DNA of 64,000 nucleotides. Origin: Eubacteriales bacterium. GTDB taxonomy: Bacteria > Bacillota > Clostridia > Oscillospirales > CAG-272. Where the stretch lies: the NCBI GenBank assembly GCA_045632345.1, contig JAZQWM010000052.1:5229-69228 (forward strand), written 5' to 3'. Below the pieces are notes generated by a model that was given only the letters and a program-made list of their open reading frames with translations, was not told the DNA's origin and searched no databases. This document shows, in pieces, positions 40,770 through 62,927 of the stretch (within the stretch, counting starts at the first letter, position 1; each line of letters starts with the position of its first letter). A program made the position numbers and the translations under genes.

Positions 40770-40845
40770 TGGGATGTAGCCAAGCGGTAAGGCACCAGAC
40801 TTTGACTCTGGCATTTCGATGGTTCGAACCCATCCATCCCAGCCA
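40770..40845 (+). tRNA. tRNA-Gln (anticodon UUG), CCA encoded
   Basis: Cloverleaf read by eye. Acceptor TGGGATG/CATCCCA; anticodon arm CCAGA-CTTTGAC-TCTGG; T arm GATGG-TTCGAAC-CCATC; discriminator G + CCA. Confidence 0.9.
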
Positions 40846-40930
40846 AGTTGAACCTAATTTGAACCACTCGGTTTAAGTTAGGTTTTTCTCTTTATATTGG
40901 CTAAATGCTTTTGTTATATAACGGATTTTA

Positions 40931-40957
40931 GACAGGGTTTTTGCCCTGTTTTTTTCT
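40931..40957 (+). terminator. rho-independent terminator downstream of tRNA-Gln
   Basis: ACAGGG-TTTTTG-CCCTGT followed by TTTTTTT. Confidence 0.75.
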
Positions 40958-41024
40958 TTGCTTAAGTCTTTGCTTTAATGTGATAAAAGTCCTTTGAAAG
41001 TTGCTTTTATGCCGTGAAAGACGA

Positions 41025-41142
41025 TTGACAAGAGTAGGGAGTGTGGTAGGCTATTTCAGCCGAAAGGCAAACGAAACCCCTCGGGGTTGATGTCTTGGCT
41101 CTTTTACGCCTTACATCCACACTCCCGAGAGGCTCTTGTCAA
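41025..41142. other. 118-nt rod-like hairpin immediately 3' of the recombinase gene
   Basis: Two perfect 10-bp helices: TTGACAAGAG/CTCTTGTCAA (41025-34 / 41133-42) and GGGAGTGTGG/CCACACTCCC (41037-46 / 41117-26). They enclose GCC-GAAA-GGC and ACCC-CTCG-GGGT hairpins. Confidence 0.6.
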
Positions 41143-41176
41143 TTGTACCATGGAATAAATGCAACTTTTATTCCTT

Positions 41177-42666
41177 TCAAATATACATTTCTATTTTGTA
41201 TCCGAAATCATTTGTTTTAGAAAAGCAAAAGCCCTGACTTTTGTCAGGACTTATACTACTATTTGGGGTGTTAAAATAAATCTTTAATGTATCATCAAAC
41301 ATTTCAATTTCTTTTATGAGTATTGATACAAATGCTTTAGCTTCTAATTTAAGAGTTTCTTTAAAGTATTCTCTTATATCGCTTTCTGTAAGTGCTATTT
41401 CTACCTTTGCATTTTCAATCAGAAGCTCTTTTTCTATATCTTCTAATTTGTTTTCAAGCTCGTGTAATCTTTTGTTAGTGGTATTTGAAATTATACCGTT
41501 TTCAATTGCTTTCATAATATTGTCAAGTGATTTTTCAATTTGCTTCTTTTCATTTAAAAGCATTGATAATACAGCATTTTCTCTTGAATTGCTTTCTTGT
41601 GCTTTCAATATGCTATCAACAATTAAATTCATAATTTCAGGCTTGTTTAATTCTGTTTCCAAGATTGTAAGAATAAGCGTTTCAAAATCATTTTTCTTAA
41701 CTATTGACTTTGTGCAGCCATTTGCTCTTTTTCTGCCAAAGCATTTATAGTAATGACAGGTTTTGCCAGACCTTGCTGTGCCTGTTTCAGCTGTAACTGT
41801 ACTACCACAGTAGCCACATTTTAATTTATGACGGAGTAAATAGTCAATCTTTTCACTTTTTGTTCCGTATTTATTTGCTACGATTTTCTTATGTACTCTA
41901 TCAAATATATTTTGAGGTACAATTCTTGGGTACATATCGGTAAATACTTCGTTTTTGAATCTGTATATACCTGCGTATTTTTCATTTTTAAGCATATTAT
42001 AAACGGTGTTTCTTAGAAATTCCTTGCCTTTGTAATATACACCTCTTTCTGTTAAGACTTTGATTATATCTTTTACAGCTACGTCGTATGAATATTGCTC
42101 ATAAATGTATCGTACAATTTCGGCTTCTTCTTCATTTATGACAACTTTTTTATTTACAATTTTGTAGCCATAAAGCAGATTTCCACCTGTAAAATTGCCC
42201 TTTAATCTTGTTTCATTCATACCACGCTTCACTTTTTGTGAAAGTTCAGCAGAGTAATACTCAGCATATCCTTCAAACATTGATTCCATAATGATAGCTT
42301 CAGGTGTATCAGGTAAATATTCTGTTGCTGATTTCAATCTTACACCATTATCTTTTAATGTTTTCTTATGAATTGCTGTTTCGTATTTGTTTCTTGAAAA
42401 TCGGTCAAATTTGTAAACTAATACATAGTCCCAATTTCCGTTTGCACTGTCTTTTAACATTTGCTGAAATGCAGGGCGATTGTCATTTGTCCTGTCATAG
42501 CTCTGTCAATGTATGTATTAACTATTACTATGTTATTGTTTTTAGCATAGTCAGTACATACTCTTAACTGTCCGTCAATTGACTGCTCAGTTTGATTTTC
42601 ACTTGAATAACGAGCATAAATTACAGCTGTTTTCAACTGATTTGATTGTGATTTTTTCTTTTCCAT
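41177..42666 (-). pseudogene. large serine recombinase disrupted by a 1-nt frameshift
   Basis: N-terminal fragment (AVIYARYSSENQ...YIDRAMTG) and C-terminal ORF (NDNRPAFQQMLKD..., zinc ribbon CGYCG...CHYYKC, coiled coil) are in different frames. They meet near 42486-42492. Confidence 0.85.
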
Positions 42667-42889
42667 TTTTGATTTCTCCTTTTTAATTTTCTTTAATTTG
42701 TCTTTCGACAGGAAAAACCAAAAACGGAATTGGCAGAGATGTCAAGGAAACAGAAAATAAATTGTATAACTGTTATTCTTCTTGCATTTATGCACAATAT
42801 ATTTTCCCTTGACAGAAATGACAATTTCGTTTACACCCACCGGGCGAAAGACAAATTAAAATGTGATGTGTTAAGCATAGGCTTTAACC

Positions 42890-43018
42890 TCATTTCTTTG
42901 AATTTTTAACTAACTCCGTTATTCTCTCTAACAGAGTAAAATATAGCTGACTTTCGTTTTTCAAAAGCTCGGCTATGTTTTCTTTTCCAATAGCATCAAT
43001 TTTGATTTCATTGCTCAA
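42890..43018 (-). CDS. possible 42-aa helical protein upstream of the recombinase
   Basis: TTG start 8 nt after AAGGAG: MSNEIKIDAIGKENIAELLKNESQLYFTLLERITELVKNSKK. Below the ORF-track size cutoff. Confidence 0.3.
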   Translation of the reverse strand: MSNEIKIDAIGKENIAELLKNESQLYFTLLERITELVKNSKK

Positions 43019-43143
43019 TGTAACGCTCCTTTCGATTTTTTGTTATCTCTATTTTACGATAGGTAAGCACTTCGATTCAATATTTCTTGTTCACATAAAA
43101 ACCTCTATTTTCCCAACTGTCGCAATATACGGACACCCTAAGA

Positions 43144-43172
43144 TTGACAAGTATATTAAAATGCGTTAAATT
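43144..43172 (+). promoter_or_regulatory. candidate promoter
   Basis: TTGACA, 17 nt, TAAATT. Lies 20 nt upstream of the 43192 start. Confidence 0.45.
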
Positions 43173-43191
43173 ATATACAGGTGGTGAGGAA

Positions 43192-43488
43192 ATGAAAAGT
43201 ATTGAAGAAATACGAAAGGAATTGCGTGGAATTCAGCATTATTACAGGAATAAAGACACGTTTGATAGCTCTATTGCACTTTTAGGAAAACCGTCATTTT
43301 ATGACACTACGGAAATGTACGAAAGGTATATTGTAAATGCTCCTAAACGGTTGCAAGATGTTTACGAGGACTTATACAGACAAGGCAAAGCACAAAAGAT
43401 AGTAGCTATTGAATGGCACGTAACCGAGAAATATATACAGATACTAAACAAAAGGCTTATACTGTATTTTCAAAACGTTTTAGAGTGA
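43192..43488 (+). CDS. small sigma-70 region-4-like / DUF1492-like element regulator
   Basis: 98 aa from MKSIEE with GGTGAGGA RBS. C-terminal HTH-like KIVAIEWHVTEKYIQILNKRL. Assignment is from memory. Confidence 0.45.
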   Translation: MKSIEEIRKELRGIQHYYRNKDTFDSSIALLGKPSFYDTTEMYERYIVNAPKRLQDVYEDLYRQGKAQKIVAIEWHVTEKYIQILNKRLILYFQNVLE

Positions 43489-43496
43489 TATTTATA

Positions 43497-43828
43497 TCAA
43501 GACAAGCACACGTCTAAAAACGCAACACCTCGTTTTATTACTGATTACCCCAACTAAAAATGGGTTCGCCTGAGCAAAAAAGAAAACTCTCCTTTCGGAG
43601 AGCTTAAAAATATACAAACTATACGAATAAGGCGTTAGCGAGAAAGTGGGTGTTTTCGCAAGCGGCTTAGCGCGAAACCCCACTTCGCTCGCCTTCGTAT
43701 TTGTTTTTTAACTCGTGGGAGCGTTTTTGACGTGAGCTTTTAGTTTGTCAGTTTGCTTTGTTTTTTGTAGGGCGTGTGCTTGTCTGCCGAGCGAAGCGAG
43801 GCACTTGTTCAAGACAAGCACACGCCCT
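43497..43828. repeat. 16-nt perfect direct repeat plus inverted copy forming a 16-bp stem
   Basis: TCAAGACAAGCACACG at 43497-43512 and 43809-43824. AGGGCGTGTGCTTGTC (43769-84) pairs with GACAAGCACACGCCCT (43813-28). Confidence 0.7.
43570..43602 (-). terminator. minus-strand rho-independent terminator about 265 nt downstream of the XRE-TPR gene
   Basis: Minus strand reads CTCTCC-GAAA-GGAGAG followed by TTTTCTTTTTTG. Confidence 0.6.
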
Positions 43829-43865
43829 GTTTACACGTTTCACACAAACATTGACTTAATGTTTT

Positions 43866-44999
43866 CTAATCATTACTCTTATATTTAGCATATTTTTCAA
43901 GTTTTTGCAAAATTTCTTGAAATTCAGGTGTGTTATTTACAAAAGTAAAGCACTTATCACTCATTCCATCTATTGATGTAAGACAGGTGTTTCTTGGATT
44001 GCTTGTAGTTACATATTCTCGTTTAAAATCAAGTTTATCTACAAAAAGAGAGGTATGCGGTGAATCTTGCAATGTATTAAACATAATTGAATAATCTGCC
44101 ATTTTATTAAGATTTTCTAAGGTCTTTTCTTCGTTTTCAAGTTTCGCATATTCTCTTGCTATCCAAGAATGCAGCACGGACATTTTTACACAAAAGAAAC
44201 CATAGTCCTCCTTGTAGAAAACTATTTTTATAATATTAGTACAATCTTCAAGAATTTTAATTTTTTCTTCTATTGATGTATTTGCCTGTCTTGTAGCTCT
44301 ATTCATCAAGCTTTCGATAAAAAGGTCAAGATATGCAAAGGTATTTTGTTGGCGTTGCTTTTCACCTTCGTCACCCTTCAAAATTATGCCTAAAAGTTGC
44401 TCTCTGCTTGTAACCATAGTTCCTGACATATTAGCATATTCTTTTGCTTTTTCTATATCTTTCTTGCGAAAATAAGTAAAACAAAGGGTTTGTATTGCAC
44501 TTGTTCTTGAATTTATATCTGTGCTTGACAACAAGGATTCTGCTATATTTATCAGCAAAGGAAATTTTTCCTGTTTTTGCTTTTCATCAAATCCTTGTGT
44601 GCAACGTTCATCAAGCATATACATATAATAAACCTTGACTGTTTCATTGTTTGGAAACTCTGAATATGCCTTTTCCCAAAGCTCATATGCTTCCTGACAT
44701 TTTCCAACCATTAGAAATTCGTGGCTTTCTTTTTTGTATTTTTCGATTTTTTCTTGTATTCGTTCTTCTTGCAGTCCCAATAAATTATCAACTGTTGTGT
44801 CAAAAAACAATGCTATTTTAGGCAACAAGGTTATATCGGGATATCCTTCGCCTCTTTCCCATTTTCCTATCGATTGAGCAGAAATATATAAATGCTTTGC
44901 AAGAGCCTCTTGTGTTATTCCTTTTTCTATGCGTAATTTTTTAAGCATATCCTTTAATGTGATTTCCATTTTGTTCTCCTTTGAGATATTATTTGACAA
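43866..44999 (-). CDS. XRE-HTH + TPR-like regulator (RRNPP-like architecture)
   Basis: 377 aa. N-terminal HTH (ITQEALAKHLYISAQSIGKWERGEGYPDITLLPKIA) and a C-terminal helical-repeat region. Confidence 0.75.
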   Translation of the reverse strand: MSNNISKENKMEITLKDMLKKLRIEKGITQEALAKHLYISAQSIGKWERGEGYPDITLLPKIALFFDTTVDNLLGLQEERIQEKIEKYKKESHEFLMVGKCQEAYELWEKAYSEFPNNETVKVYYMYMLDERCTQGFDEKQKQEKFPLLINIAESLLSSTDINSRTSAIQTLCFTYFRKKDIEKAKEYANMSGTMVTSREQLLGIILKGDEGEKQRQQNTFAYLDLFIESLMNRATRQANTSIEEKIKILEDCTNIIKIVFYKEDYGFFCVKMSVLHSWIAREYAKLENEEKTLENLNKMADYSIMFNTLQDSPHTSLFVDKLDFKREYVTTSNPRNTCLTSIDGMSDKCFTFVNNTPEFQEILQKLEKYAKYKSND

Positions 45000-45054
45000 G
45001 CGCTTATCTACTTTTATTATAATTCACATTTTACACATTTTCAAGAACTGTTAG

Positions 45055-45082
45055 GTTGTATTTTAGTTGTATTTTACAACCG
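45055..45082. promoter_or_regulatory. candidate operator in the divergent intergenic region
   Basis: Perfect tandem 11-mer GTTGTATTTTA x2 (45056-66, 45067-77) bracketed by GGTTG...CAACC. Confidence 0.4.
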
Positions 45083-45194
45083 AATATATATGATGATAGT
45101 AATTAAACATACTAAAAGAAGTAATTAAATTCTAAAATTATGGCTATAATTAAAGTAATGATAGCCTTCTCCGTAATTTTTTTACGGAAAAGTG

Positions 45195-45223
45195 TTGAAT
45201 TTGCTTTACAATCGTGTTATAAT
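45195..45223 (+). promoter_or_regulatory. strong sigma-A type promoter of the ATPase/RloB-like operon
   Basis: TTGAAT, 17 nt, TATAAT with TG extended -10. Confidence 0.65.
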
Positions 45224-45260
45224 GTCAATGAAAATCTATAAAAATCGTGGAGGAACTGTA

Positions 45261-46397
45261 ATGATTAGAAAATTTGAAGTCAAGAATTATAAGAATTTTA
45301 AAGATACTTTAAGTATTGATTTTACAAATGTTCACGATTATCAATATAACGAATATTGTGTAAAAAATGGTCTCATTAACAAAATGATAATTTACGGCAA
45401 AAATGCTGTAGGAAAGAGTAATTTAGGTATCGCCCTATATGATATCGCTATGGATGTTCACCTCTCGAGAAATCCATACAACTATAAAAACGATAGAATG
45501 CTTTTTAAAAATGCAGATGCAGAAGATGAAGAATTAGTAGAGTTTTATTATTCTTTTCAATTTGATGATGATATTGTTGATTATAGTTATAAGAAAAAGG
45601 ACGTTACAGATATTGTAAGCGAATCATTGCACATAAATGATGAATTGATTTTCTCTTATAATACAATAACTGGCGAACAGGATTTTTCAAACACTATAAA
45701 AATCAATGCAAGTGATTTGAATTGGAACGATTTTATTGAAATTTCTGATGCTTCAGGGCCAGATTTTATAGAGTCGACCAAGCCCTCTGCATTGAGATAT
45801 ATTATCTACAATACTATTCAAAAAGAATCCTCTCTTATCACAAAATTATCTCAGTTCATAAAAGGAATGCGTTTCACTCCTTCACTTAATTCAATTTCGC
45901 CAAGACTTTTATTAAATGAATATTTCACGGATGAAGAAAGCTTGTTAAAATTTGAAAAATACCTCAACAATTATGGAGTAATGTGTAAACTCAAAATGAT
46001 AGAGGGATTGGATGGAAAAAAAGACCTTTATTTTGATTATAAAAAGCCTTTATTGTTTAGTAGTAATCTATCAAGTGGAACTATTGCATTGACAAGATTT
46101 TACATTCAATACTTAAGCAGAGTAAAACCAACATTTGTTTTTATGGACGAGTTTGATGCTTTTTATCATTTTGAATTATCCGAAAAAATTATTTCATTGC
46201 TGGAAAATGAATTTGATTGTCAAGTAATATTAACCTCTCATAATACGAATTTATTAAGCAATTCAATTATGCGACCAGACTGTTTTATGATTTTGAGCAA
46301 TGGAAAACTCACACCGATATGCGAAGCCACCAACAGAGAATTGCGTCAAGGACACAATCTTGAAAAATTGTACAAAAACGGTGAATTCGATGAGTAA
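45261..46397 (+). CDS. ABC/SMC-type (AAA_15/21-like) ATPase, AbiLi/OLD-ATPase-like
   Basis: Start MIRKFEVKNYKNF with GGAGG RBS. Walker A GKNAVGKSN, signature-like LSSGT, Walker B FVFMDEFD, TSHN. Confidence 0.8.
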   Translation: MIRKFEVKNYKNFKDTLSIDFTNVHDYQYNEYCVKNGLINKMIIYGKNAVGKSNLGIALYDIAMDVHLSRNPYNYKNDRMLFKNADAEDEELVEFYYSFQFDDDIVDYSYKKKDVTDIVSESLHINDELIFSYNTITGEQDFSNTIKINASDLNWNDFIEISDASGPDFIESTKPSALRYIIYNTIQKESSLITKLSQFIKGMRFTPSLNSISPRLLLNEYFTDEESLLKFEKYLNNYGVMCKLKMIEGLDGKKDLYFDYKKPLLFSSNLSSGTIALTRFYIQYLSRVKPTFVFMDEFDAFYHFELSEKIISLLENEFDCQVILTSHNTNLLSNSIMRPDCFMILSNGKLTPICEATNRELRQGHNLEKLYKNGEFDE

Positions 46398-47148
46398 TGA
46401 TGGACGTAACATTCTTTTAATTGTTGAAGGTGAAAAAGCTGAGGTGAGATTGTTCGAAAAAATCTTATCTCTTTTCCCTGAAATAAAGTTAAATCCCAAC
46501 AACATACTCGTTTATAACACTAATATTTGGGTTTTGAACAAGAGTTTGGAATATGCTTTTGGCACAGATTGGTATAATTCCAAAGATATTGAATTTCTTG
46601 AATTTATAGAATCTAGATTTCCAGAGATTAAAGGAAAGAAAATAACTGACACATTTTTAGTGTTTGATTATGAAAGGCAGGATTTTAGATTCTGTGGTGA
46701 CAAATTGGAAAAGATGTGTCAATTTTTCAACGACTCGGTGGAAAATGGGAAGTTGTACATCAATTATCCAATGATTGAGTCATACAAACATTTCAAATGC
46801 TCCGAGTTTCCTGATAACGATTATAGAGACAGAATTTGCAAAGTAGAAGACATAGCTGTATATAAAAATACAGTTGGTCAAGAAACTAAACATCAAGATA
46901 TAAGAAAATTTTCACGAGCTATGTTTCAACAAATTACAATTCATAATATCAAAAAATCATCGTTCATTGTGTCAAACAAATATGATTTGAATGATTCCGA
47001 AATATTGGATTATTGCGAATACATAGATTTACAAGAAATTGCTAAAATGCAAAACGTACACTCCTCGGGAGCAGAACAGTTCATATATGTGTTGTGTACG
47101 TGTCTATTTTTTATTAGTGACTATAATAGGAATCTACTATATGATTAA
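46390..47148 (+). CDS. RloB-like / TOPRIM-like partner protein (AbiLii-like)
   Basis: ATGAGTAA start/stop overlap with the ATPase. N-terminus NILLIVEGEKAE, later LVFDYERQD and YINYPMIESY. Assignment is from memory of the RloB signature. Confidence 0.55.
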   Translation: MSNDGRNILLIVEGEKAEVRLFEKILSLFPEIKLNPNNILVYNTNIWVLNKSLEYAFGTDWYNSKDIEFLEFIESRFPEIKGKKITDTFLVFDYERQDFRFCGDKLEKMCQFFNDSVENGKLYINYPMIESYKHFKCSEFPDNDYRDRICKVEDIAVYKNTVGQETKHQDIRKFSRAMFQQITIHNIKKSSFIVSNKYDLNDSEILDYCEYIDLQEIAKMQNVHSSGAEQFIYVLCTCLFFISDYNRNLLYD

Positions 47149-47154
47149 TGTTGT

Positions 47155-47216
47155 GGTTCAAATTACAAACAAAATGCTCAGCCAAAACAAGAGGACACCA
47201 AATCGGTGTCCTTTTT
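47155..47216 (+). repeat. cassette-junction element, copy 1
   Basis: GGTTCAA (47155-61), N14, GCTCAGCCA (47176-84), hairpin GGACACC-AAATC-GGTGTCC (47193-47211), then TTTTT. Confidence 0.7.
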
Positions 47217-47227
47217 GTTTTGTTTTG

Positions 47228-47400
47228 GCTGGGATGGCGCTGGCTCGACCACTTTATGTTTGCTTTGCAAACATAAATATGGTTCGTTCTTTTGCCCTAA
47301 GGCGTTGTCTGCTTGCAAGGATAAGCCGTGGGCAAAAGCCTCGCCCATGGCGAGAACCCATCCGCATAGTTACTTTTTAAAAAGACTCCATCCATTCCAG
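47228..47400 (+). other. GC-rich structured patch containing tRNA-Gln-like fragments
   Basis: 10-bp hairpin 47254-47276; CTTTTGCCC...GGGCAAAAG; CTCGCC-CATG-GCGAG. GAACCCATCC (47354-63) is identical to tRNA 40826-35. CCATCCATTCCAG (47388-400) matches tRNA 40830-42 at 12/13. Confidence 0.5.
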
Positions 47401-47482
47401 ATGATGTTAGCACTATACTGTATTGAGAGCATTCGCGTAAAAAACAGTCAACCAATGGTTAACAAAATATATCAACTATCTC

Positions 47483-47511
47483 TTTACATACCACTGAGCT
47501 CGTGCTATAAT
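47483..47511 (+). promoter_or_regulatory. sigma-A type promoter
   Basis: TTTACA, 17 nt, TATAAT with TG extended -10. The palindrome AACCAATGGTT (47450-60) lies upstream. Confidence 0.6.
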
Positions 47512-47552
47512 ATGATTAGTTCCGGAGCAATAATTTCTTGGAGGTGTTTTGA

Positions 47553-48143
47553 ATGTCAAATTTAAAAATAGGCGATAAAATCAGAACAAAAAGAAGAGAG
47601 CGCAATATGACTCAAGAAGAGCTTGCCAACAAGCTTTTTGTAAGCAAGGCAGCAGTAAGCAAGTGGGAGAATGAGGAAAGCTATCCTGATATAACTATGC
47701 TTCCTCAAATAGCACAGATATTTCATGTAACAATGGATGAGCTTTTCGATTACACTCTTGAAGAGAAGCCGTTAAGTATCGTTAACGAATATCATTTCGG
47801 GTTCTCACTTGATGTAGTAGATAGACAAATTTTAAATTATGGTATCGCTGAAGAATGCAAAGCTTACAAAGTCGGTGACACTTGGGAGATATGCGTTGAT
47901 TTTGTATCTAATGAGGAAAATATCCCGTATATATTGCAAAAATACATTAAGCCGGGTGTACTTATTGACGGTTACAGTGTTAGACGAGCAGACGGAAAAG
48001 TTATAGATGATGATAAGCCGAATAAACATTATATATGCAGTGAAAAGGTTTGGGAATACAATCTTTCCAATAAAAAATATATGTGGTCTATGTTAAGAGA
48101 ACAAATAGCTATGGGATTGATTGAAGGAGAGGAAGGCTTCTAA
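47553..48143 (+). CDS. XRE-HTH regulator with unknown C-terminal domain
   Basis: 196 aa. HTH (MTQEELANKLFVSKAAVSKWENEESYPDITMLPQIA) followed by about 130 aa I do not recognise. Confidence 0.75.
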   Translation: MSNLKIGDKIRTKRRERNMTQEELANKLFVSKAAVSKWENEESYPDITMLPQIAQIFHVTMDELFDYTLEEKPLSIVNEYHFGFSLDVVDRQILNYGIAEECKAYKVGDTWEICVDFVSNEENIPYILQKYIKPGVLIDGYSVRRADGKVIDDDKPNKHYICSEKVWEYNLSNKKYMWSMLREQIAMGLIEGEEGF

Positions 48144-48154
48144 CAATAAAGCAG

Positions 48155-48178
48155 AAAGACAGGGCTTCCCCTGTCTTT
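48155..48178. terminator. bidirectional terminator between convergent regulator genes
   Basis: AAAGACAGGG-CTTC-CCCTGTCTTT. Confidence 0.7.
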
Positions 48179-48180
48179 TC

Positions 48181-49341
48181 TTATTTCTCTGCAAGCTTTA
48201 ATGCTTTTTCATAAAGAACTACAAATCTTTCGTCTGTGCGAACATCGTCAAACCAATGCCAATGTGTCATAGCCCTTCTTATGTCGCTTTTTATTCCAAA
48301 AAAAAGCCATAAATATGGATTCCAAGCCTTTGTTCCGTCCTGTAAATGAATGTACACAACATTTGAGCTATCGTTTTTATTTATCTTTGCATTTTCAAAC
48401 AGCTCAGGTTTTCCTACATCCATAAGCTTTCCATCGGGGATTTCAATCCATTTTTCATATAATTCAAATGATTTTTCAAGATATTCAAAGCCTTCGTTGA
48501 GTTCGTTTGCTCCAATCAATGCACCACCTGTTTTTAAACAGAGTTCTGCATAAGCACCGAGCCAAGCTTCAGGTATCGTTCCGTCAAGTGAAATAGTTTC
48601 AAGCACTCGCATTTTGAATTTTGAAAGCTCGGCAGTTCTCATAGGACTTTCAAAAACAATTCCAAATCTGTCTTTTTCTCTTACATCATGATAACGCATA
48701 CAATCTCTGCCCAAAAAATGCATTAAGCTAAGCAAATTATTTGCATTTGATTGATTTTGAAATTTTTCGTTTTCGCACCTTTGATAGTAACGTTCCTCTA
48801 ATTTTTCGTTTTCGCAATCAGCAAATATTCGTGGGCTTCTGTATTTCCAATTCTCAAATTCTTCATCTGGGCATACTATATTCATGTAATGAATCGCACT
48901 TTGCCTTATCCATTCGTTTGTACATTCTTCCATTATTTTTTCGCAAATATGCTTCAAAAGTGGATATTCCTTTTCCCAATAGTCCTTAATTTCTACTATT
49001 GAGCCACCTAAAATTTCCATAATCACAAAATTTTGTGGATATTTTTTGTGATACGCCTTAGCCAATGATAAGCGTTCTTTATAATTTACTTTTCCGTATT
49101 TTTCTAAAAAGCTTTCTATATCGTTTTTAACACTAACCTCGTCATTTCCGATAAGCTCATCAACAGTAATTCCCAAAAAGTTAGCAATAGACGGAAGCAA
49201 AGTTATATCGGGATAGCCACCTCTTTCCCAATTTGATACAGCTTGTGGTGAAACATATAAAGCCTTTGCTTATTCCTCTTGTGTTAAATCAAGACGCTTT
49301 CTTTCTCTTGAAATAACTTCTGAAATTTTCAATTCTACCAT
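48181..49341 (-). pseudogene. XRE-HTH + TPR-like regulator with an in-frame TAA in the HTH
   Basis: ATG at 49341 with GGAGG RBS gives MVELKISEVISRERKRLDLTQEE-TAA-AKALYVSPQAVSNWERGGYPDITLLPSIANFLG, in frame with the listed 48181..49200 ORF. The stop is at 49270-49272, where paralogues have Leu. Confidence 0.75.
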
Positions 49342-49478
49342 AATAAAATCCTCCTGTATGATTAGAGGGAGTGCACACCTTCTGTCATTATGATAACATT
49401 GTTTTGTGTGATAGTCAATAACTTTGCACTTGAGTTTCGCTCAAACAATGTTTGAATTTTACAAACAACAATTAAACA

Positions 49479-49504
49479 GCGAGTGCCGAAAAATCAGCAC
49501 TCGC
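49479..49504 (-). terminator. minus-strand terminator
   Basis: GCGAGTGC...GCACTCGC hairpin. A T-rich tract follows on the minus strand. Confidence 0.6.
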
Positions 49505-49512
49505 CATTTGTT

Positions 49513-50625
49513 TTATTCAAAATTAAAACATTGCTTGACTTTTGAAACCAAAGCCTTAAATCTTTCTGTTCCCCTTATAGGATTTAGCCATTCCCAACCC
49601 TCAGATTCAGTTAAAATCTCATATAATTGTTCAAATCGCCACGGGTCAGTATGATTAGGCGATAAAAAAATCAAATCAAGAGTTGGACAATTGAACTTCA
49701 ATTCCGTACCTGTAGGAATATTCCAATATTTAATGTATAAATCAATTGATTTTTCAAGAGCTTTAAAGCCTTCTTCTATTTCGCCTGACCCAACGAGTCC
49801 TCCTGCTAATCGCAAATATGCCCAAGCCCTTTCAGCAATCCAAGCATCTATTTCCTCGGACGGGTCTCTCAAAGCATCAATTATTTTTAAAATAATCTTC
49901 TGTCCTTCTGCACGAGATTTTGCATTTTTGTATGTTTTTGCATCTCTTTTACAAAAATCTCTACTAAAAATATCTATCAACCCATCTACTATATTCCATT
50001 GAATTTGCTCGTTATATTTTTCAATCTCATTACGATATTCATATCGTGAGGTAATAATGCTGGGTAAAGAAGTATAAAATCTATCACTTACATATTGTGT
50101 CCAATTTTCAAGTTTATCCTCATCCTCTACTCTAATCATTATTCTTATACAGCCTAAGCGATATTCTTTATCTTTAGAGTTATCGTTTTCAATAACAAAT
50201 AAAGAATATTTTCTTAACGCTTCAATATTTTTCTTGGCACAATCAAAGCCCCTCCTATGATATAGACTACATAATTTCCATTGAAAGTACACATCCTTTG
50301 GAAAGCTTTTAATTGCTTCCGTAAGAGTTTTTTCAAACTTTTTGAAATCTTCGTCACTATATATATTTTCCTGTTCTTTGATTGTTTTCAAATATTCCTG
50401 TCGCTTATATTCTATTGTTGTTTCGTCTGTGCCAAAAAGCACATCAGTAGTTACACCAAAATAATTACCAATCAACGGAATAAGCTCCACATCAGGATAT
50501 GCAAGGTCATTTTCCCATCTGCTAACCGATTGATAGGTTACATTCAAAACCTTTGCTAATTCCTCTTGCGTGATATTCTTTTCCTTTCGTAATCTCTTTA
50601 TTACTTGTGAAATAGGCAATCTCAT
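49513..50625 (-). CDS. XRE-HTH + TPR-like regulator (paralogue)
   Basis: 370 aa. HTH (ITQEELAKVLNVTYQSVSRWENDLAYPDVELIPLIG) and a helical-repeat C-terminus similar to the 48181 and 43866 proteins. Confidence 0.75.
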   Translation of the reverse strand: MRLPISQVIKRLRKEKNITQEELAKVLNVTYQSVSRWENDLAYPDVELIPLIGNYFGVTTDVLFGTDETTIEYKRQEYLKTIKEQENIYSDEDFKKFEKTLTEAIKSFPKDVYFQWKLCSLYHRRGFDCAKKNIEALRKYSLFVIENDNSKDKEYRLGCIRIMIRVEDEDKLENWTQYVSDRFYTSLPSIITSRYEYRNEIEKYNEQIQWNIVDGLIDIFSRDFCKRDAKTYKNAKSRAEGQKIILKIIDALRDPSEEIDAWIAERAWAYLRLAGGLVGSGEIEEGFKALEKSIDLYIKYWNIPTGTELKFNCPTLDLIFLSPNHTDPWRFEQLYEILTESEGWEWLNPIRGTERFKALVSKVKQCFNFE

Positions 50626-50766
50626 ATTCTCACCTCAATATTAAATTCAAAGTGCACCTTGTACCTTTATTGTAATGCAAAACTACTGATATTTCAATAA
50701 CTTATCACGCATAATCAACTAAATTGTTAAGTGAGTTTTTCGCAAATTGATAATACTGTGGTATTC

Positions 50767-50834
50767 GGTTCAATTTTCGCACATCCCGTTCAGCCAGAAA
50801 AAAGACCAACTCACTTGTGGGTTGGTCTTTTTTT
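50767..50834 (+). repeat. cassette-junction element, copy 2
   Basis: GGTTCAA (50767-73), N14, GTTCAGCCA (50788-96), hairpin AGACCAAC...GTTGGTCT (50803-28), then a T-run. No same-strand gene lies upstream. Confidence 0.7.
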
Positions 50835-50872
50835 GTTATATTCGCCTGCGGCGAGTTCTATGCACGACCTGC

Positions 50873-51008
50873 GTGATATTGCCTTCGGCAGTGATATGCG
50901 CTTCGCGCGTTGGAAGTTACAAGGGCGAATATAATATCACTGTGAGCAAATCGAACAATATCACTTTTTCGCAGAAAAAATATCACTCTGCTTTAGCAGA
51001 ATATCACT
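50873..51008. repeat. iteron-like heptamer cluster (6 copies of ATATCAC/GTGATAT)
   Basis: GTGATAT at 50873 and 50891. AATATCACT at 50933, 50957, 50979 and 51000 (core starts spaced 24, 22 and 21 nt). The last copy abuts the -35 box. Confidence 0.75.
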
Positions 51009-51014
51009 TATTTC

Positions 51015-51043
51015 TTTACAAGCGATTTAATTTATGATATACT
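51015..51043 (+). promoter_or_regulatory. sigma-A type promoter
   Basis: TTTACA, 17 nt, TATACT with TG extended -10. Confidence 0.55.
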
Positions 51044-51061
51044 TTTTACGAGGTGATAACA

Positions 51062-51424
51062 ATGTCAAACAGCATTTTAAGAGATAAATCCAAAGATTTT
51101 GCAAAGCAAATTGTTATTCTTTGCAGAAATATTAAAGCTAATCACAAAGAATCGGTTTTGACCAATCAACTCTTGCGTTCGGGAACATCCATCGGTGCAA
51201 ACATACACGAGGCACAATACGCACAAGGTAAAAAGGATTTTATATCTAAATTGGAAATCGCACAAAAGGAATGCAACGAAACGGAATATTGGCTTGAATT
51301 ACTGTTTGAAACAGGCTATATGACAGAGGCAGAATACAAGCCAATTCAAAGCGAGTGCGGTGCTATTCGCAGAATGTTAATTTCCTCTATAAATACCACT
51401 AAAGCAAATTTACAACAGGAGTGA
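51062..51424 (+). CDS. four-helix-bundle protein (23S rRNA intervening-sequence protein family)
   Basis: 120 aa from MSNSIL with GAGGTG RBS. Pattern LLRSGTSIGANIHEAQ...FISKLEIAQKECNETEYWLELL. Confidence 0.7.
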   Translation: MSNSILRDKSKDFAKQIVILCRNIKANHKESVLTNQLLRSGTSIGANIHEAQYAQGKKDFISKLEIAQKECNETEYWLELLFETGYMTEAEYKPIQSECGAIRRMLISSINTTKANLQQE

Positions 51425-51430
51425 AATGGT

Positions 51431-51928
51431 ATGGCTATTTGGTACAAAGTTGAACATTCAAAATTGGGAATAAAAAACTTTATGGAATGCAATTGGCATT
51501 TCCACGATTTTAGTATTGAACGAGTTAGCCTTTTATCTAATGAAAATACAGTGGAAATTTTTTTAAGGTATGATGAATTGGAAGGCAGTGTTATTATTCG
51601 TTTTGTTAATGTTCATTCTATGAATGTAAATTTTAAGGTGGAGTTCGGTTCTTCTGAGGGCATTATGGGTAGTGTTTTACTTTTGACCGACAACAGTCGC
51701 TTATTATGGATTGCCGACGACTCTTGGGGCAATCAAAGTGCCCAACATATTGACGAGCTTAAAAATGAATTTTCATGGGTAGAAGCAGAAAATATCATAT
51801 GGGCAGTAACGGACGAAACTGGCAAACCAGCTGAAATGCCAGCTTCTAAAATCGACCAAGTTTGGAACATCTATGGCAAAACAGAATATCACCATTTCGA
51901 TCTTATGCCATATAATGAAGTAGAATAA
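51431..51928 (+). CDS. hypothetical protein
   Basis: 165 aa, coupled 6 nt after the four-helix-bundle gene. No family recognised. Confidence 0.55.
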   Translation: MAIWYKVEHSKLGIKNFMECNWHFHDFSIERVSLLSNENTVEIFLRYDELEGSVIIRFVNVHSMNVNFKVEFGSSEGIMGSVLLLTDNSRLLWIADDSWGNQSAQHIDELKNEFSWVEAENIIWAVTDETGKPAEMPASKIDQVWNIYGKTEYHHFDLMPYNEVE

Positions 51929-52043
51929 TATTTTAAATATTGCGATAAGTAAGGTTAAAATCTCACAAAAATTCTGACTTAAAATCAAATCTTAACTGTT
52001 ATAAATTCTTATGCCGCAAGGCTTTAAGTCAATTTCACCTTGC

Positions 52044-52118
52044 GGTTCAACTGAGGCCTTAAATGTTCAGCCAAGAAAGACATAATCCGAACCGTCGGGT
52101 TAGGTCTTTCTCTTTTTT
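52044..52118 (+). repeat. cassette-junction element, copy 3
   Basis: GGTTCAA (52044-50), N14, GTTCAGCCA (52065-73), hairpin AGAAAGAC...GTCTTTCT (52074-52111), then a T-run. Confidence 0.7.
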
Positions 52119-52276
52119 GCTTGGATGTATGTTCTCACGACCCTTCCTCTTACTTCGAAAGAACATGGTTCGTAATCAAGCCCAAGTCATCTGGGAGGAC
52201 GCTCACAAGGTACTGAGTGCAGATCATTTTCCAACGGAAAATGTATCCGTTCTCTTTTTATAAAAACCAAATCTAC

Positions 52277-52305: not shown

Positions 52306-52329
52306 CATATCAAGAAAGGTGGTGCACTT

Positions 52330-53169
52330 ATGGGATGTTGGGGAATGGGACTTACCCAAAGCGATGAATACTGCGAAATATACGAGCGATTTATGGAAGA
52401 ATACGATGAGGGTAAACCTCTTGGTGATATTAAAAACGATATTATAGAAGAATACTTAGAAGAATTTGATGAACACGACGGAATCTTTCACGATGTATAT
52501 TTTGCTATCGGTAAAGCGGAATGGATGTGCGGCGGAATATCCGACGAAATTTTGGAAAAAATAAAGCATATCATCTTGAATGGTGATAATATTGCTTTTT
52601 ACCGTGAACTTGAAGCCACAGAAAGCGATTTAAAATTGCGGCAAAAGAATCTTGAAAAATTTTTAAACTCACTTTCTATACCAAGAGGAAAGACAAAAAA
52701 ACGCAAAATACCAACTGAAAAATACATGCCTGTAATAAAACCTAAACTTCCGCCCTTCAAATGTGGCGACATATTTTCGTATGAAGTAAACGGAAAACAT
52801 CGTCTGTTATGCTTTGTATATAGAGGTAAATATTATTCCACATATGCCGCCTATTGCTATGCGTGGCAAAAACTATACGATACTATTCCGCCATTAGAGG
52901 ATTTAGCTAAAGAGTTAGTTATGCCTCTTGGATATTTTACCGTAGATACCTTCCCAAATTTTAATAAACTCACCTACCACGGAAATAATCTGAATTTAAA
53001 AAAACTATACGTTTTCTTTCCAAAAGTTTTTTGTGAGCATTGGAAACCTGCAAGATATGCTATGGCGTTGGAGAAACATTTATCTGAGCATTATCCAACA
53101 GAACATTGCATAAAACTTAGCGAGTGCTTTGAAAAAATAGAAGAAATTAAAAAAAGAATAATAGGCTGA
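52330..53169 (+). CDS. DUF4259-like N-terminal domain protein (polymorphic-toxin immunity-like)
   Basis: 279 aa with MGCWGMGLTQSDEY N-terminus. C-terminal GDIFSYEVNGKHRLLCFVY resembles Imm26-type cores. Assignment is from memory. Confidence 0.45.
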   Translation: MGCWGMGLTQSDEYCEIYERFMEEYDEGKPLGDIKNDIIEEYLEEFDEHDGIFHDVYFAIGKAEWMCGGISDEILEKIKHIILNGDNIAFYRELEATESDLKLRQKNLEKFLNSLSIPRGKTKKRKIPTEKYMPVIKPKLPPFKCGDIFSYEVNGKHRLLCFVYRGKYYSTYAAYCYAWQKLYDTIPPLEDLAKELVMPLGYFTVDTFPNFNKLTYHGNNLNLKKLYVFFPKVFCEHWKPARYAMALEKHLSEHYPTEHCIKLSECFEKIEEIKKRIIG

Positions 53170-53257
53170 CTTACGTAAGGACTCACTAAACGGGTACAAA
53201 TGTCATAAAAAAAGAATGCATTGACATAAAACTATAATCAATAGAAAGAAAAAAACA

Positions 53258-54031
53258 ATGAACAAAACCTACAACCGATATAAAAAAGAACTTTTAGCAA
53301 ATGGTTTTACAGAAGCCAAGAAAAAGGACGGACATTTTTACCGTCAAGCAGCAAGTCAAACCGCATTTGTAATAAATTTAGAAAATAATGAATTTTGTGT
53401 TGACATCTTATATGGCTTTGCTTCTACCGCCTGTATGTTGGGTGATGAAGATTATTTTTCAAATTATGGCTCTAATAAAGATGACTGCCACATAAGAAAA
53501 ATAATATCCGTGTCTAAAGAAAACGAAGAAGCAGCGAAACAAATAATCAAAGACCTTTATAACAAATATAAATCATTCACAAAGGACGAAATTCTTTCTC
53601 TAAAAAAGGAGTGCCAAAAGGAATTTTTAAATAATTTTGCTAAAGTCTTAAAGCCCCTTGGCTTTAAAAAGAAAGGGACTAAATGGTCAAGGGAATTGGA
53701 AAACGGATATTTTCTGTTTTTGGATGCTCAAAAATCAGCATTTTCTGATGAATACTACTTTAATGTAATAATAAAATTACTCAACGAAAGTAGCGTAGGA
53801 TGTTTTTATACAAGAGTAGTAATGGGTGAGCAAAATATCTATAATTGGCAGTTAATGTCCGATAAGCAAATTGAAACTCTCGTTAATTACACCTTGGATA
53901 ATTACATAACACCAATTTTAAATACACCCCTGCAAGACTTAGGAAAGAATAAATCCATTTGTAATAGTTGCTATTGCGAAAGAAACAAATGTGCAAATTG
54001 TTGGCTTGAACACAACCATTGGCAAAATTAA
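53258..54031 (+). CDS. DUF4304-like protein (immunity-like)
   Basis: 257 aa. LKPLGFKKKGTKWSRELENGYFLFLDAQKS...YYFNV matches the DUF4304 pattern as I remember it. Confidence 0.45.
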   Translation: MNKTYNRYKKELLANGFTEAKKKDGHFYRQAASQTAFVINLENNEFCVDILYGFASTACMLGDEDYFSNYGSNKDDCHIRKIISVSKENEEAAKQIIKDLYNKYKSFTKDEILSLKKECQKEFLNNFAKVLKPLGFKKKGTKWSRELENGYFLFLDAQKSAFSDEYYFNVIIKLLNESSVGCFYTRVVMGEQNIYNWQLMSDKQIETLVNYTLDNYITPILNTPLQDLGKNKSICNSCYCERNKCANCWLEHNHWQN

Positions 54032-54073
54032 AAAGCAAAATAATATTAAGCGCATTTATAAAGGAGAGCCGAT

Positions 54074-55165
54074 ATGTTTGAATTAACCAACGAACAAAGA
54101 AAGTGCTTCGCTTTACCGCCTGTGCTTGAGGCTTGGAAAAGAATAGAGGTGAAAAAGGGACCGTACGATACTTGTAATACCTATGCGTATATTGACGGAC
54201 AACAAATTATGAAGGTTATTCAAGTGTGTGATACGAAAGGTCAAGAGTTTTACCGTGAATATTCAGTCAATCAATTAATCTCAAATGACGGAACGAAGCT
54301 TCTTCCTAAAACTTCAAAAGGGAAACCGCAAAATTTTATTGCATCATATCTTGAAAAGAAAAAACCGATTGGAATGTCAATTGATTTTAAATCCAATTAT
54401 ATCGCCATAGTTAATAATGATAGTGAACAATGCTATTATCGTTCTGTATATTGCGGTGAAAGAATAGAAACACTTAGCGATTTTAAATTGTGGATAGCAA
54501 ATTGGTGTAAAACCACAGGAGAAAAGGAATTAAAAGAAATAATTGAATTTTCCAAGCGTACAAAAAGTCATCAAAAATTTAATGAAGGTGATTTTTTTAG
54601 ATACAGAATAGACCGTTCTCTTTATGGCTATGGCAGAATTCTTTTGGATTTTGAAAAAATGCGCAAGGAAGGCGTAAAGTTTTGGGATATATTTATGGGC
54701 AAGCCACTATGTGTTGCAGTATATCATATTGCTACCACAGATTCAAATTTAAAGCCCGAACAGCTTTTGGGAAAAAAGATGCTTCCATCACAAATGATAA
54801 TGGATAATATATTCTATTACGGTGAATGTGAAATTGTTGGAAATATTCCCATTGAAGAGAACGAAAAGGATTATCCGATACACTACGGAAGAAGTATATC
54901 ATTAATAGACCCAAATAGTATTAAATACCAATGCGGAAAAACCTATGCTTCAAAATTATTAAAAAAAGAATTAGGCGATTTTAAAAATAATGGCATAGGT
55001 TGGGACTTAAATGTGAAGTTACCTATTTTGTTAGAATGTATCAAGCAAAATTCTAACGATCCATATTGGCAAATGATTCATCCTTATTATTCAAATAAGG
55101 ATTTGCGAAATCCAAAATTCAAGAAAGAGCTCGAACAAATTAAAAAGCAAATGGGAGTAAAATAG
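54074..55165 (+). CDS. Imm26-like immunity-family protein
   Basis: 363 aa with GDFFRYRIDRSLYGYGRILLDF core. Assignment is from memory. Confidence 0.4.
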   Translation: MFELTNEQRKCFALPPVLEAWKRIEVKKGPYDTCNTYAYIDGQQIMKVIQVCDTKGQEFYREYSVNQLISNDGTKLLPKTSKGKPQNFIASYLEKKKPIGMSIDFKSNYIAIVNNDSEQCYYRSVYCGERIETLSDFKLWIANWCKTTGEKELKEIIEFSKRTKSHQKFNEGDFFRYRIDRSLYGYGRILLDFEKMRKEGVKFWDIFMGKPLCVAVYHIATTDSNLKPEQLLGKKMLPSQMIMDNIFYYGECEIVGNIPIEENEKDYPIHYGRSISLIDPNSIKYQCGKTYASKLLKKELGDFKNNGIGWDLNVKLPILLECIKQNSNDPYWQMIHPYYSNKDLRNPKFKKELEQIKKQMGVK

Positions 55166-55179
55166 AAAGGAAAACAATT

Positions 55180-55497
55180 ATGGAAAAATACGCATGGAAA
55201 GCAAAAATAGTTGACGGAGCATTAGAGGAATACATAAAACGCCACGATGCAATATGGGAAGAAATGAAGGAAGTCTTATCAAATGCAGGTATAGTAAACT
55301 ACACAATTTGGAATGTAGGCAACGAACTTTTTGGCTATTACGAATGTGAAAAGGGCATTGAATACGCCACCAAGGTACAAAGAGAAAGCCCCGTAGTTGA
55401 TAAATGGAACGAATATATGAAGGACATTCTTATAATGGAATTAGACCCTGAAACAGGCGCACAACCTCAACTCAAAAAGGTATTTTCATTCAAATAA
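55180..55497 (+). CDS. rhaM: L-rhamnose mutarotase family (DUF718) protein
   Basis: 105 aa with the YIKRHDAIWEEM...NYTIW...LFGYYE pattern. Confidence 0.7.
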   Translation: MEKYAWKAKIVDGALEEYIKRHDAIWEEMKEVLSNAGIVNYTIWNVGNELFGYYECEKGIEYATKVQRESPVVDKWNEYMKDILIMELDPETGAQPQLKKVFSFK

Positions 55498-62890: not shown

Positions 62891-62927
62891 TCAAACTAAA
62901 CAAAAAGGACACCATGAAGGTGTCCTT
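62891..62927 (-). terminator. minus-strand terminator with no intact gene upstream
   Basis: AAGGACACC-ATGAA-GGTGTCCTT. On the minus strand it is followed by TTTTTGTTTAGTTTG. Confidence 0.6.

Follow-up and report, generated by a model that had tools for sequence, protein, structure and literature searches.

The window analyzed here comprises 64 kb (64,000 nt) of contig JAZQWM010000052.1 from a Eubacteriales bacterium; all positions without further specification refer to this stretch. It contains a tRNA-Gln (UUG) gene that is adjoined by the gene of a large serine recombinase (LSR) and, further downstream, an accessory region in which a bipartite box occurs repeatedly. This box, GGTTCAA-N14-GYTCAGCCA (box 1 and box 2), had been described in an initial annotation, which was made from the sequence alone and in which three copies were thought to divide the accessory region into cassettes. 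The three exact matches are indeed present at 47155, 50767, and 52044 (copies 1, 2, and 3), all of them on the + strand. No extra match was found in the window even when 2 mismatches were allowed, and shuffled sequences yielded a chance expectation of 0.11, whereby three copies were reached in 0 of 100 shuffles. Downstream of each box come an A-rich stretch, a hairpin with a copy-specific sequence, and a T-run. These hairpins, too, had been noted before, and a terminator scan was positive at all three places (47189–47215, 50797–50834, and 52083–52102). A third box, C(A/T)CGACC, is located at 47244, 50863, and 52136, whereas ATGGTTCG occurs three times in 64 kb, namely at 47279, at 52165, and at 40819 within the tRNA-Gln gene; both agree with the earlier description. 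The features of the locus are listed in Table 1.

Table 1. Features of the tRNA-Gln locus and the adjacent accessory region.
Feature	Position	Strand	Basis or remark
tRNA-Gln (UUG), putative integration target	40770–40845	+	ARAGORN; Rfam tRNA, 63 bits
Putative attL (B-O-P')	40821–40865	+	Half-site table; end of L180 alignment; P' shared with L159 and L161
Palindrome of ~130 nt directly behind the recombinase stop codon	41018–41150		Not an att site
LSR gene	41177–42666	-	Pfam; adjoins tRNA-Gln
Cargo of the first element	43866–47148	both	Pfam; PADLOC
HTH-TPR regulator (first-element cargo)	43866–44999	-	Pfam
PDC-M12 A/B, candidate two-gene defense system	45192–46397, 46300–47148	+	PADLOC, 7.6e-96 and 1e-41
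Copy 1, predicted attR of the first element (P-O-B')	47155–47204	+	Inverted repeat with P' of the window; B' homologies
Structured unit 1	47226–47363	+	Fold; colinear tRNA-Gln matches; L179/L180 flank homology
Remnant of the second element	47376–50766	both	Three HTH_3 genes kept; Rep and recombinase genes missing
HTH_3 genes of the second remnant	47553–48143; 48181–49344; 49513–50625	+; -; -	Pfam
Copy 2, predicted attR of the second element	50767–50816	+	L161 identity; partner-arm match
Diverged unit with GTGATAT/ATATCAC repeats and small hairpins	50833–51033		Rfam RF01706; fold
Remainder of the third element, two genes between copies 2 and 3	51053–51928	+	Pfam
Copy 3, putative P-O-P' junction	52044–52093	+	Half-site table; trailer homology
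Structured unit 3	52122–52251	+	L003 homology; units of L105, L179, and L180

Half-Sites, Partner Arms, and Element Boundaries

According to Pfam, the LSR gene encodes the domains Resolvase (PF00239), Recombinase (PF07508), and Zn_ribbon_recom (PF13408), and its translation carries the catalytic YARYSS motif. By sequence, the nearest solved relatives are the TP901-1 integrase, TnpX, and the A118 integrase. In homologues the gene is intact and located at the same position, inside the element and beside one attachment (att) site. A tblastn comparison with the intact 500-aa homologue P0001, which is 97% identical, placed a frameshift in the LSR gene of the window near 42490, where the frame changes from -2 to -1. 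The gene is split into 42454–42666 and 41177–42460 by this 1-nt frameshift, which might reflect either a pseudogene or a sequencing error.

The tRNA-Gln gene contains chromosomal counterparts of both boxes, namely the T-loop GGTTCGA (40821–40827) for box 1 and the 3' end CAGCCA (40840–40845) for box 2. The conserved portion of box 2 is a 6–7-nt core, CAGCCA(A), which equals the tRNA-Gln 3' end. The spacing differs in that the tRNA reads GGTTCGA-N12-CAGCCA, whereas the boxes read GGTTCAA-N17-CAGCCA and thus have five extra bases. The N14 spacer had been regarded as 14 unrelated nucleotides. This holds true for most of it, but the first four bases prolong box 1 to an 11-bp inverted repeat with the partner arm that adjoins the recombinase gene.

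In a half-site table, the centre was set between the C and the A of the core and both halves were written outward. Here, the tRNA-side arms (Gln-UUG, Gln-CUG, fMet, and Ser) present TxGAACC, the reverse complement of the T-loop, at positions 14–20, whereas the element-side (P) arms and all P' arms beside LSR genes present the motif at positions 19–25, the P arm of L177 being the exception (L numbers designate related loci). This 5-bp shift is present in the left arms of all four tRNA targets. P arms and their cognate P' arms form perfect inverted repeats of 11–13 bp at positions 15–25/27, and the reconstructed attP is an imperfect palindrome of ~50 bp with the halves GGTTCAAATTACAAACAAAATGCTC and AGCCAAGTTGAACCTAATTTGAACC. 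The shared core is CAGCCA(A) in the tRNA-Gln elements, GCACCCA in the fMet elements, and CCGCCA or TCCGCCA in the Ser elements, whereby symmetry suggests CA as the crossover dinucleotide. For serine integrases, a 50-bp palindromic attP has been described together with a shorter attB, in which the ZD motif lies 5 bp nearer to the centre, and this offset between attP and attB was proposed from one crystal structure (PMC3783163).

In the putative attL, the B arm (40821–40840) is provided by the tRNA and is followed by the core CAGCCAA (40840–40846) and the P' arm (40841–40865), with the centre presumably lying between 40840 and 40841. The inverted copies of box 1 (TTGAACC) that had been noticed at 40848 and 40859 are present and correspond to half-site positions 8–14 and 19–25 of this P' arm. 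The P' hairpin and its T-run (to about 40900) now serve as terminator of tRNA-Gln, and the same P' arm is found behind the tRNA in L159 and L161. In copy 1, a P arm (47155–47179) is joined at the core CAGCCAA (47179–47185) to a B' half, which is the native trailer and terminator of tRNA-Gln with the hairpin at 47189–47215. All bases at positions 15–27 of the copy-1 P arm (TAATTTGAACCAC) recur in inverted orientation in the P' arm of the window (13/13). The B' half shows homology both to the native flank of L179 and to the flank of the unoccupied attB in L180.

L179 and L180 are contigs of the same species, which were reached via the left core gene and run from this gene to rhaM without an LSR element. 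The element-free L180 aligns with the window as far as 40846, the last base of CAGCCAA, and continues after the tRNA with AAACAGAAAGACCACC...GGTGGTCTTTCTGTTTTGG, the homologue of the copy-1 right half; its attB of 40–50 bp consists of GGTTCGAACCCATCCATCCC on the left and AGCCAAAACAGAAAGACCACC on the right. L179 11217–11376, located just behind the tRNA of that contig, aligns with 47192–47362 of the window, just past copy 1. Since L180 stops at 40846 and the L179 flank resumes at 47192, the first element represents an insertion of approximately 40847–47185. Hybrid attL and attR sites around the insertion and an unoccupied attB in a related genome were both found, and from these alignments the first element is predicted to have its attL at the tRNA and its attR in copy 1. 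As a separate observation from a single strain, the tRNA-Gln of L179 (11135–11240) has no encoded CCA (its sequence ...CATCCCAG is directly followed by TAACGC) and hence no CAGCCA core; no LSR element is present there.

The counterpart of copy 2 was found in L161, a 29-kb contig with a 61% identical LSR beside an identical tRNA-Gln. In L161, ~5 kb separate the LSR start from the copy-2 30-mer, and a rolling-circle Rep gene as well as three HTH genes lie in between. This element is intact (three HTH genes, Rep, and LSR), with tRNA-Gln and the copy-2 box as its bounds. Its distal end shares 87.5% identity with 49480–50796 of the window over ~1.3 kb up to the copy-2 30-mer, ending directly after CAGCCA. 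Accordingly, the region of 47.4–50.8 kb represents the distal part of an L161-type element whose Rep and recombinase have been lost. Copy 2 itself consists of a P arm (50767–50791), the core CAGCCA (50791–50796), and the terminator (50797–50834), and positions 15–25 of its P arm (AAAATTGAACC) match the L161 P' arm in 11 of 11 bases. Copy 3 combines a P arm (52044–52068) and the core CAGCCAA (52068–52074) with a right half (52069–52093) that is P'-like, having TAATCCGAACC at positions 15–25, and its hairpin and T-run extend to ~52115. This right half and the terminator are homologous to the trailer 40846–40900 of tRNA-Gln, with CAGCCAAG, 7 nt, and TAATYYGAACC...TTAGGTyTTTCTCTTT in common. The P' arm that matches the copy-3 P arm (TCAGTTGAACCGC, with a 1-nt offset) is the right half of the L161 attR.

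Alignment of related loci had been recommended in the initial annotation, and the comparisons with the element-free L180 and the L161 element show that gene content changes at these sites. The 33-nt sequence of copy 1 is present exactly in two contigs from metagenome-assembled genomes, L091 and L105, in which identity begins at GGTTCAA; the genes upstream of it differ across all three loci, and in L091 the hairpin downstream of the core differs from that of the window. These two contigs are the only real ones among the matches listed in a genome-collection scan with the bare box pattern, which gave at least 120 matches, nearly all by chance. Elements with other targets were found as well: in L159, a 97% identical LSR lies beside the 3' end of tRNA-Gln(CUG) in the same geometry, L163 and L164 harbor a 60% identical LSR beside tRNA-fMet, and additional LSR homologues occur beside tRNA-Ser. 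The far-end P arm of L163 is 78% identical to the copy-1 region, whereby GCACCCA, the tRNA-fMet 3' end, replaces CAGCCA, and the spacing of the tRNA-fMet element is also +5 (GGTTTAA-N16 versus GGTTCAA-N11 in the tRNA). A metagenome scan with the box pattern plus T-run gave 33 matches, none of which was a family member. Scans of viral contigs with the box plus T-run, the structured unit described below, or the reconstructed attP gave nothing or chance matches, BLAST searches of plasmids and phages with copy 3 gave no match, and exact look-ups of three window proteins found none on record.

Interpretation of the Boxes and Alternative Explanations

Altogether, the boxes very probably constitute attachment-site halves of small elements, which LSRs inserted as a tandem array into the tRNA-Gln 3' end. 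The comparisons revealed the limits of the elements, an unoccupied site, the partner arms, the +5 geometry, and a tandem structure, and at the sequence level the sites have what would be expected of LSR attachment sites. The general conclusion of the initial annotation, which had led from fixed boxes and a free spacer to a protein-binding recombination site, was correct. Also, gene content switches exactly at the boxes, but the units in between appear to be decayed integrative elements and not promoterless cassettes. The hairpin and T-run, which had been taken as a working part of the site, turned out to be a terminator or a P' hairpin right of the crossover.

In the proposed mechanism, each box would present an element-derived P arm that was joined at the core CAGCCA(A) to the DNA downstream of the tRNA. 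We infer that box 1 (GGTTCAA) is most likely read by the zinc-ribbon domain of the recombinase and copies the tRNA T-loop GGTTCGA. It lies 5 bp farther from the crossover than the T-loop, and this offset would be the way in which serine integrases distinguish attP from attB. Box 2 would comprise the inner portion of the half-site plus the core that it has in common with the ...CCCAGCCA end of the tRNA. The freedom of the spacer would be explained by a small number of base-specific protein contacts in this part. In copies 1 and 2, the hairpin and T-run might be the displaced tRNA terminator, and in copy 3 an older resident's P' hairpin. With regard to the probable order of events, the junctions in copy 3 and L161 would have been formed by integration of a new element into the attL of a resident, whereupon the older recombinase ends were lost. 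For copies 1 and 2, both of which have native-type right flanks, homologous recombination has probably also brought in the element along with its flank. It has been described that site-specific integrative elements accrete and subsequently decay (PMC5704250).

There are several points that weigh against the attachment-site interpretation. The right halves of copies 1 and 2 are native-type terminators and not the P' arms of the next element, and sequential integration alone does not explain the whole array. The right chromosomal half-sites (B') have no clear motif at positions 14–20, the 5-bp rule being seen on the left arms alone, and one tRNA-Ser element, L177, has a weak motif in its P arm (GACCA instead of GAACC). 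On the activity side, the LSR gene of the window is frameshifted, and a search of viral contigs for an excised attP junction was negative. Furthermore, in the literature considered here, serine integrases are mostly found at non-tRNA sites, and tRNA genes are mostly targets of tyrosine integrases (PMC10654092). Considering this tendency in the literature, the tRNA targeting suggested here would be somewhat unusual, yet not contradictory.

Other origins of the boxes were weighed against these data. It had been suggested that the sites are integron attC-like or rAID-like junctions, where a tyrosine recombinase inserts promoterless cassettes at folded sites. Such junctions would be in line with the structure that is kept after each box while the sequence varies, with the immunity-type genes Imm26 and DUF4304 nearby, and with the differences in gene content among strains at these points. 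However, no tyrosine or integron integrase was identified by Pfam among the open reading frames (ORFs) of 41–59 kb, in which the serine recombinase is the sole recombinase, and there is no GTTRRRY/RYYYAAC core, the boxes GGTTCAA and GYTCAGCCA standing in direct order. Since, in addition, the genes between the sites have both orientations and promoter-like sites of their own, the conserved piece is a linear bipartite half-site and not a hairpin, and the boxes pair with partner arms adjoining LSR genes, we regard this explanation as extremely improbable. A small or cis-regulatory RNA family of ~60–90 nt, extending from box 1 to the terminator, was considered very improbable, even though a good intrinsic terminator is located behind each box and weak promoter-like hexamers precede copies 1 and 2. 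Promoter-like sites are not enriched (24 versus 20.3 expected), the tRNA alone exceeded the threshold in the Rfam search while the boxes gave no match, and the boxes pair neither mutually nor with a conserved partner. Moreover, the terminator differs despite an identical box (L091 versus the window), and the breakpoints of identity coincide with the recombination core. As identity between loci begins at box 1 and ends after the core, a DNA junction fits, whereas an RNA gene does not.

It might also be that the boxes are direct repeats of the tRNA 3' end, reaching from the T-loop to CCA, as they derive from tyrosine-integrase islands. They share the strand of tRNA-Gln and contain T-loop-like and 3'-end motifs, and a true tRNA-fMet 3' fragment of such a kind lies downstream in L163. 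This origin is nevertheless quite improbable, because the 12 nt between the tRNA motifs are replaced by 17 unrelated nt, so that the boxes are not tRNA copies, the +5 offset recurs across three different tRNA targets, and no tyrosine integrase was found among the ORFs of 41–59 kb. The weak alignment of the three copies beyond the boxes, with a mean column identity of 67%, would be compatible with a plain duplication of a ~230-nt intergenic segment that has diverged without selection on the boxes, as had been pointed out in the initial annotation. Against this, copies 1 and 2 have identical counterparts in other genomes with the identity limited exactly to the site, each copy pairs with a different cognate arm, and the similarity past the boxes stems from a separate native unit; a plain duplication therefore has next to no probability.

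Structured Units and Further Features of the Locus

The third box and ATGGTTCGT, which had been assigned to the site, belong to a separate structured unit. Because this unit is also present in LSR-free strains, it is not part of the att sites but simply the sequence downstream of tRNA-Gln. In unit 1, TGGCTGGGATGG, the complement of the tRNA-Gln 3' end, is followed by CTCGACC, an inner hairpin, ATGGTTCG, and two hairpins, and the unit ends with GAACCCATCC, whereby CTCGACC pairs with ATGGTTCG to form one stem around the inner hairpin. The unit shares 77–86% identity with the flank of the LSR-free L179 and L180. Unit 3 has the order TTGGATGTATG, CACGACC, hairpin, ATGGTTCG, and two hairpins. It presents 95% identity to L003 938–1069, which is located directly upstream of rhaM in L003, and is homologous to the units of L105, L179, and L180, with compensatory changes. 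Ten modules were examined, and in each of them box 3 (CGA(A)CC) and GGTTCG form a stem that encloses an inner hairpin of variable sequence; compensatory changes were also detected in the hairpins downstream of this stem. In L179, one long inverted repeat (GGTTCGAACCCATCCATCCCAG...CTGGGATGGATGTTCTCTCGAACC) extends over the 3' half of the tRNA, the terminator, and 24 nt beyond it; therefore, TTTTGGCTGGGATGG represents the far arm of this repeat and box 3 an inverted T-loop. The modules occur singly or in tandem, with two arrays around an acyltransferase gene in L179. In L180, a copy-1-type module is directly followed by a copy-3-type module, whereas 4.7 kb lies between the two module types in the window, and the modules may represent additional points of exchange.

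An Rfam search of units 1 and 3 gave no family match, and an nhmmer search for further units yielded nothing usable. A decayed tRNA-Gln gene was rejected as explanation of the unit, since the middle 42 nt match the tRNA by ~24% (judged by eye, at chance level) and the ends alone match. A small protein gene starting from ATGGTTCGT was dismissed, as copy 3 and L105 do not share the reading frame and a ribosome-binding site is lacking. The same applies to a permuted tRNA or a two-piece transfer-messenger RNA (tmRNA): ARAGORN found none, and N14 cannot form a T-stem or an acceptor stem. TGGGATGG proved to be complementary to the 3' end of the tRNA, from which it is separated by the terminator.

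Two further-reaching readings, namely a retargetable LSR family that reads the T-loop and the structured unit as a new RNA or DNA module, are jointly rather unlikely. In the first of these, the T-loop, which is universally conserved in tRNAs, may act as the zinc-ribbon motif of the LSR family. If so, retargeting among Gln, fMet, and Ser tRNAs would proceed by changing the core-proximal 12–17 bp alone, and this would be a naturally modular integrase family. In the structured unit, the 3' half of the tRNA is present as an inverted copy, together with the conserved CGA(A)CC/GGTTCG stem with a variable hairpin and further hairpins with compensatory changes; the unit may be a new structured RNA or DNA recombination module and not debris, and could supply homology for cassette exchange.

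A "degenerate relative" of the boxes, which had been reported at 41055–41105, is unrelated to them and constitutes the tip of the palindrome behind the recombinase stop codon. This palindrome is imperfect and is kept with compensatory changes (e.g., TTGACAAGAG/CTCTTGTCAA versus TTGACGCGAG/CTCACGTCAA) in five element lineages (window, L161, L163, L167, and L177). A target-matched pseudo-att site was rejected, as the TCAGCC-like loop does not track the target tRNA; the palindrome could be a terminator, an origin of transfer (oriT), or a single-strand origin. Within the cargo of the first element, PADLOC assigned PDC-M12 A, an AAA_21/AbiLi-like ATPase (7.6e-96), and PDC-M12 B (1e-41). CAAGACAAGCACACG is repeated at ~43500 and ~43810 around a GC-rich, hairpin-rich stretch, which separates a small ORF (43144–43488) from the HTH-TPR gene. 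Near-identical terminator hairpins of the type GGACACC-loop-GGTGTCC are located at unrelated places in several genomes (window 47193–47211 and 62907–62925; L001 1128–1146; L003 921–938; L179 11218–11236; L163).

In the second remnant, the HTH_3 gene 48181–49344 on the - strand has an in-frame stop near its 5' end, which is consistent with decay. The diverged unit behind copy 2 gave two sub-threshold matches to Gut-1 RNA (RF01706), with 33–35 bits compared to a gathering score of 50. On the + strand, these matches comprise GTGATAT repeats and small hairpins, after which ATATCAC occurs four times at a spacing of 21–24 nt; the CACGACC at 50863 falls within the unit. The unit lies just upstream of a 23S_rRNA_IVP-like gene, and its layout resembles iterons or operators, so that one may ask if Gut-1 is a DNA-level repeat. 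The genes of the third element encode a 23S_rRNA_IVP/bAvd-like four-helix protein and a 165-aa protein. A diversity-generating retroelement, as prompted by the bAvd-like gene, was rejected because neither a reverse transcriptase nor a pair of template and variable repeats was found among the ORFs examined. Right of copy 3, a 279-aa gene, a DUF4304 gene, and an Imm26 gene follow, and the core genome starts again from rhaM at 55180. This three-gene block (52330–55165) is absent in L003 and was apparently inserted at the ribosome-binding site and start codon of rhaM (shared CAAGAAAGGTGGTnACAnTTATGG). In other strains, a duplicated rhaM 5' fragment is found upstream of the Imm26 gene. These observations concern 52310–52335 and 55165–55185 in the window, 1195–1331 in L001, 14178–14429 in L179, and 10067–10183 in L180. 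The immunity genes near rhaM seem to be exchanged through short-homology recombination.

Two further arrangements were observed in related loci. Downstream of attR, L163 (reverse complement, 19381–19618) contains a GGACACC-type terminator, ~190 nt with CACGACC, and 22 nt that are identical to the 3' end of tRNA-fMet and have a terminator of their own, an arrangement that looks like the scar of an older, different integration. In L180 (7940–8036) and L003 (850–945), another type of junction, GCATCTAAATCRGACACACATCMCA plus a terminator, is located ahead of the structured unit; in L180 it ends a 1.1-kb insertion between two copies of the tRNA trailer and terminator. Probably, the GCATCTAAATCRGACACACATCMCA junctions belong to another element family that uses the tRNA-Gln 3' end.

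Significance and Comparison With Known Systems

The array is a clear instance of an ordinary mobile-DNA scar and does not change current concepts. As an annotation rule, GGTTCRA-N17-(tRNA 3' core) downstream of a tRNA would mark the far end of a serine-recombinase element, with the tRNA as its near end. In gut Clostridia, whose serine-integrase sites are difficult to predict, such a rule would delimit mobile defense and immunity cargo. The published 5-bp offset is seen here on the left arms of four natural tRNA targets, and related integrases with matched attP/attB pairs are candidate tools for genome engineering.

With integron attC sites and the Bacteroidales rAID-1, the locus has in common that repeated sites, each followed by a hairpin, lie between accessory and immunity genes. 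In a rAID-1 array, a conserved tyrosine recombinase heads co-oriented immunity genes with conserved intergenic repeats. In contrast, neither a tyrosine recombinase of this kind nor an IntI-type tyrosine integrase with attI and Pc was found at the present locus among the ORFs of 41–59 kb. An attC core is also missing, the genes are neither uniformly oriented nor arranged as promoterless cassettes, and the sites bound whole decayed elements with regulators and defense genes. Islands of tyrosine integrases at tRNA genes resemble the array in the kind of hot spot, the strand logic, and the defense and immunity cargo. They differ in the recombinase family; moreover, here a 6–7-nt core is shared instead of a long tRNA repeat, and the T-loop motif is offset by 5 bp.

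Closer similarity exists to the integrative mobilizable elements (IMEs) and cis-mobilizable elements (CIMEs) with serine recombinases from Streptococcus and Clostridia, which the present elements resemble in that they are small (6–10 kb) and carry a recombinase, sometimes a rolling-circle Rep, and cargo. One recombinase-bearing element with decayed neighbors in tandem at one site is also known from these (PMC5704250). Serine-recombinase IMEs, however, usually interrupt dispensable genes (PMC5704250), whereas the elements described here preserve the tRNA and give it a new terminator, and no oriT or relaxase was identified in them. The large serine integrases (A118/LI, phiC31, Bxb1, and TP901-1) share with the present system the three-domain LSR architecture, the imperfectly palindromic attP of ~50 bp with a short identity core, and the outer motif of 7–11 bp that is 5 bp nearer to the centre in attB (left arms). 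What sets the present family apart is that the chromosomal right half-site is without a clear motif, that tRNA 3' ends are targeted with the T-loop itself as outer motif, and that, as the compared elements suggest, the family has switched between tRNA-Gln, tRNA-fMet, and tRNA-Ser via the core-proximal sequence.

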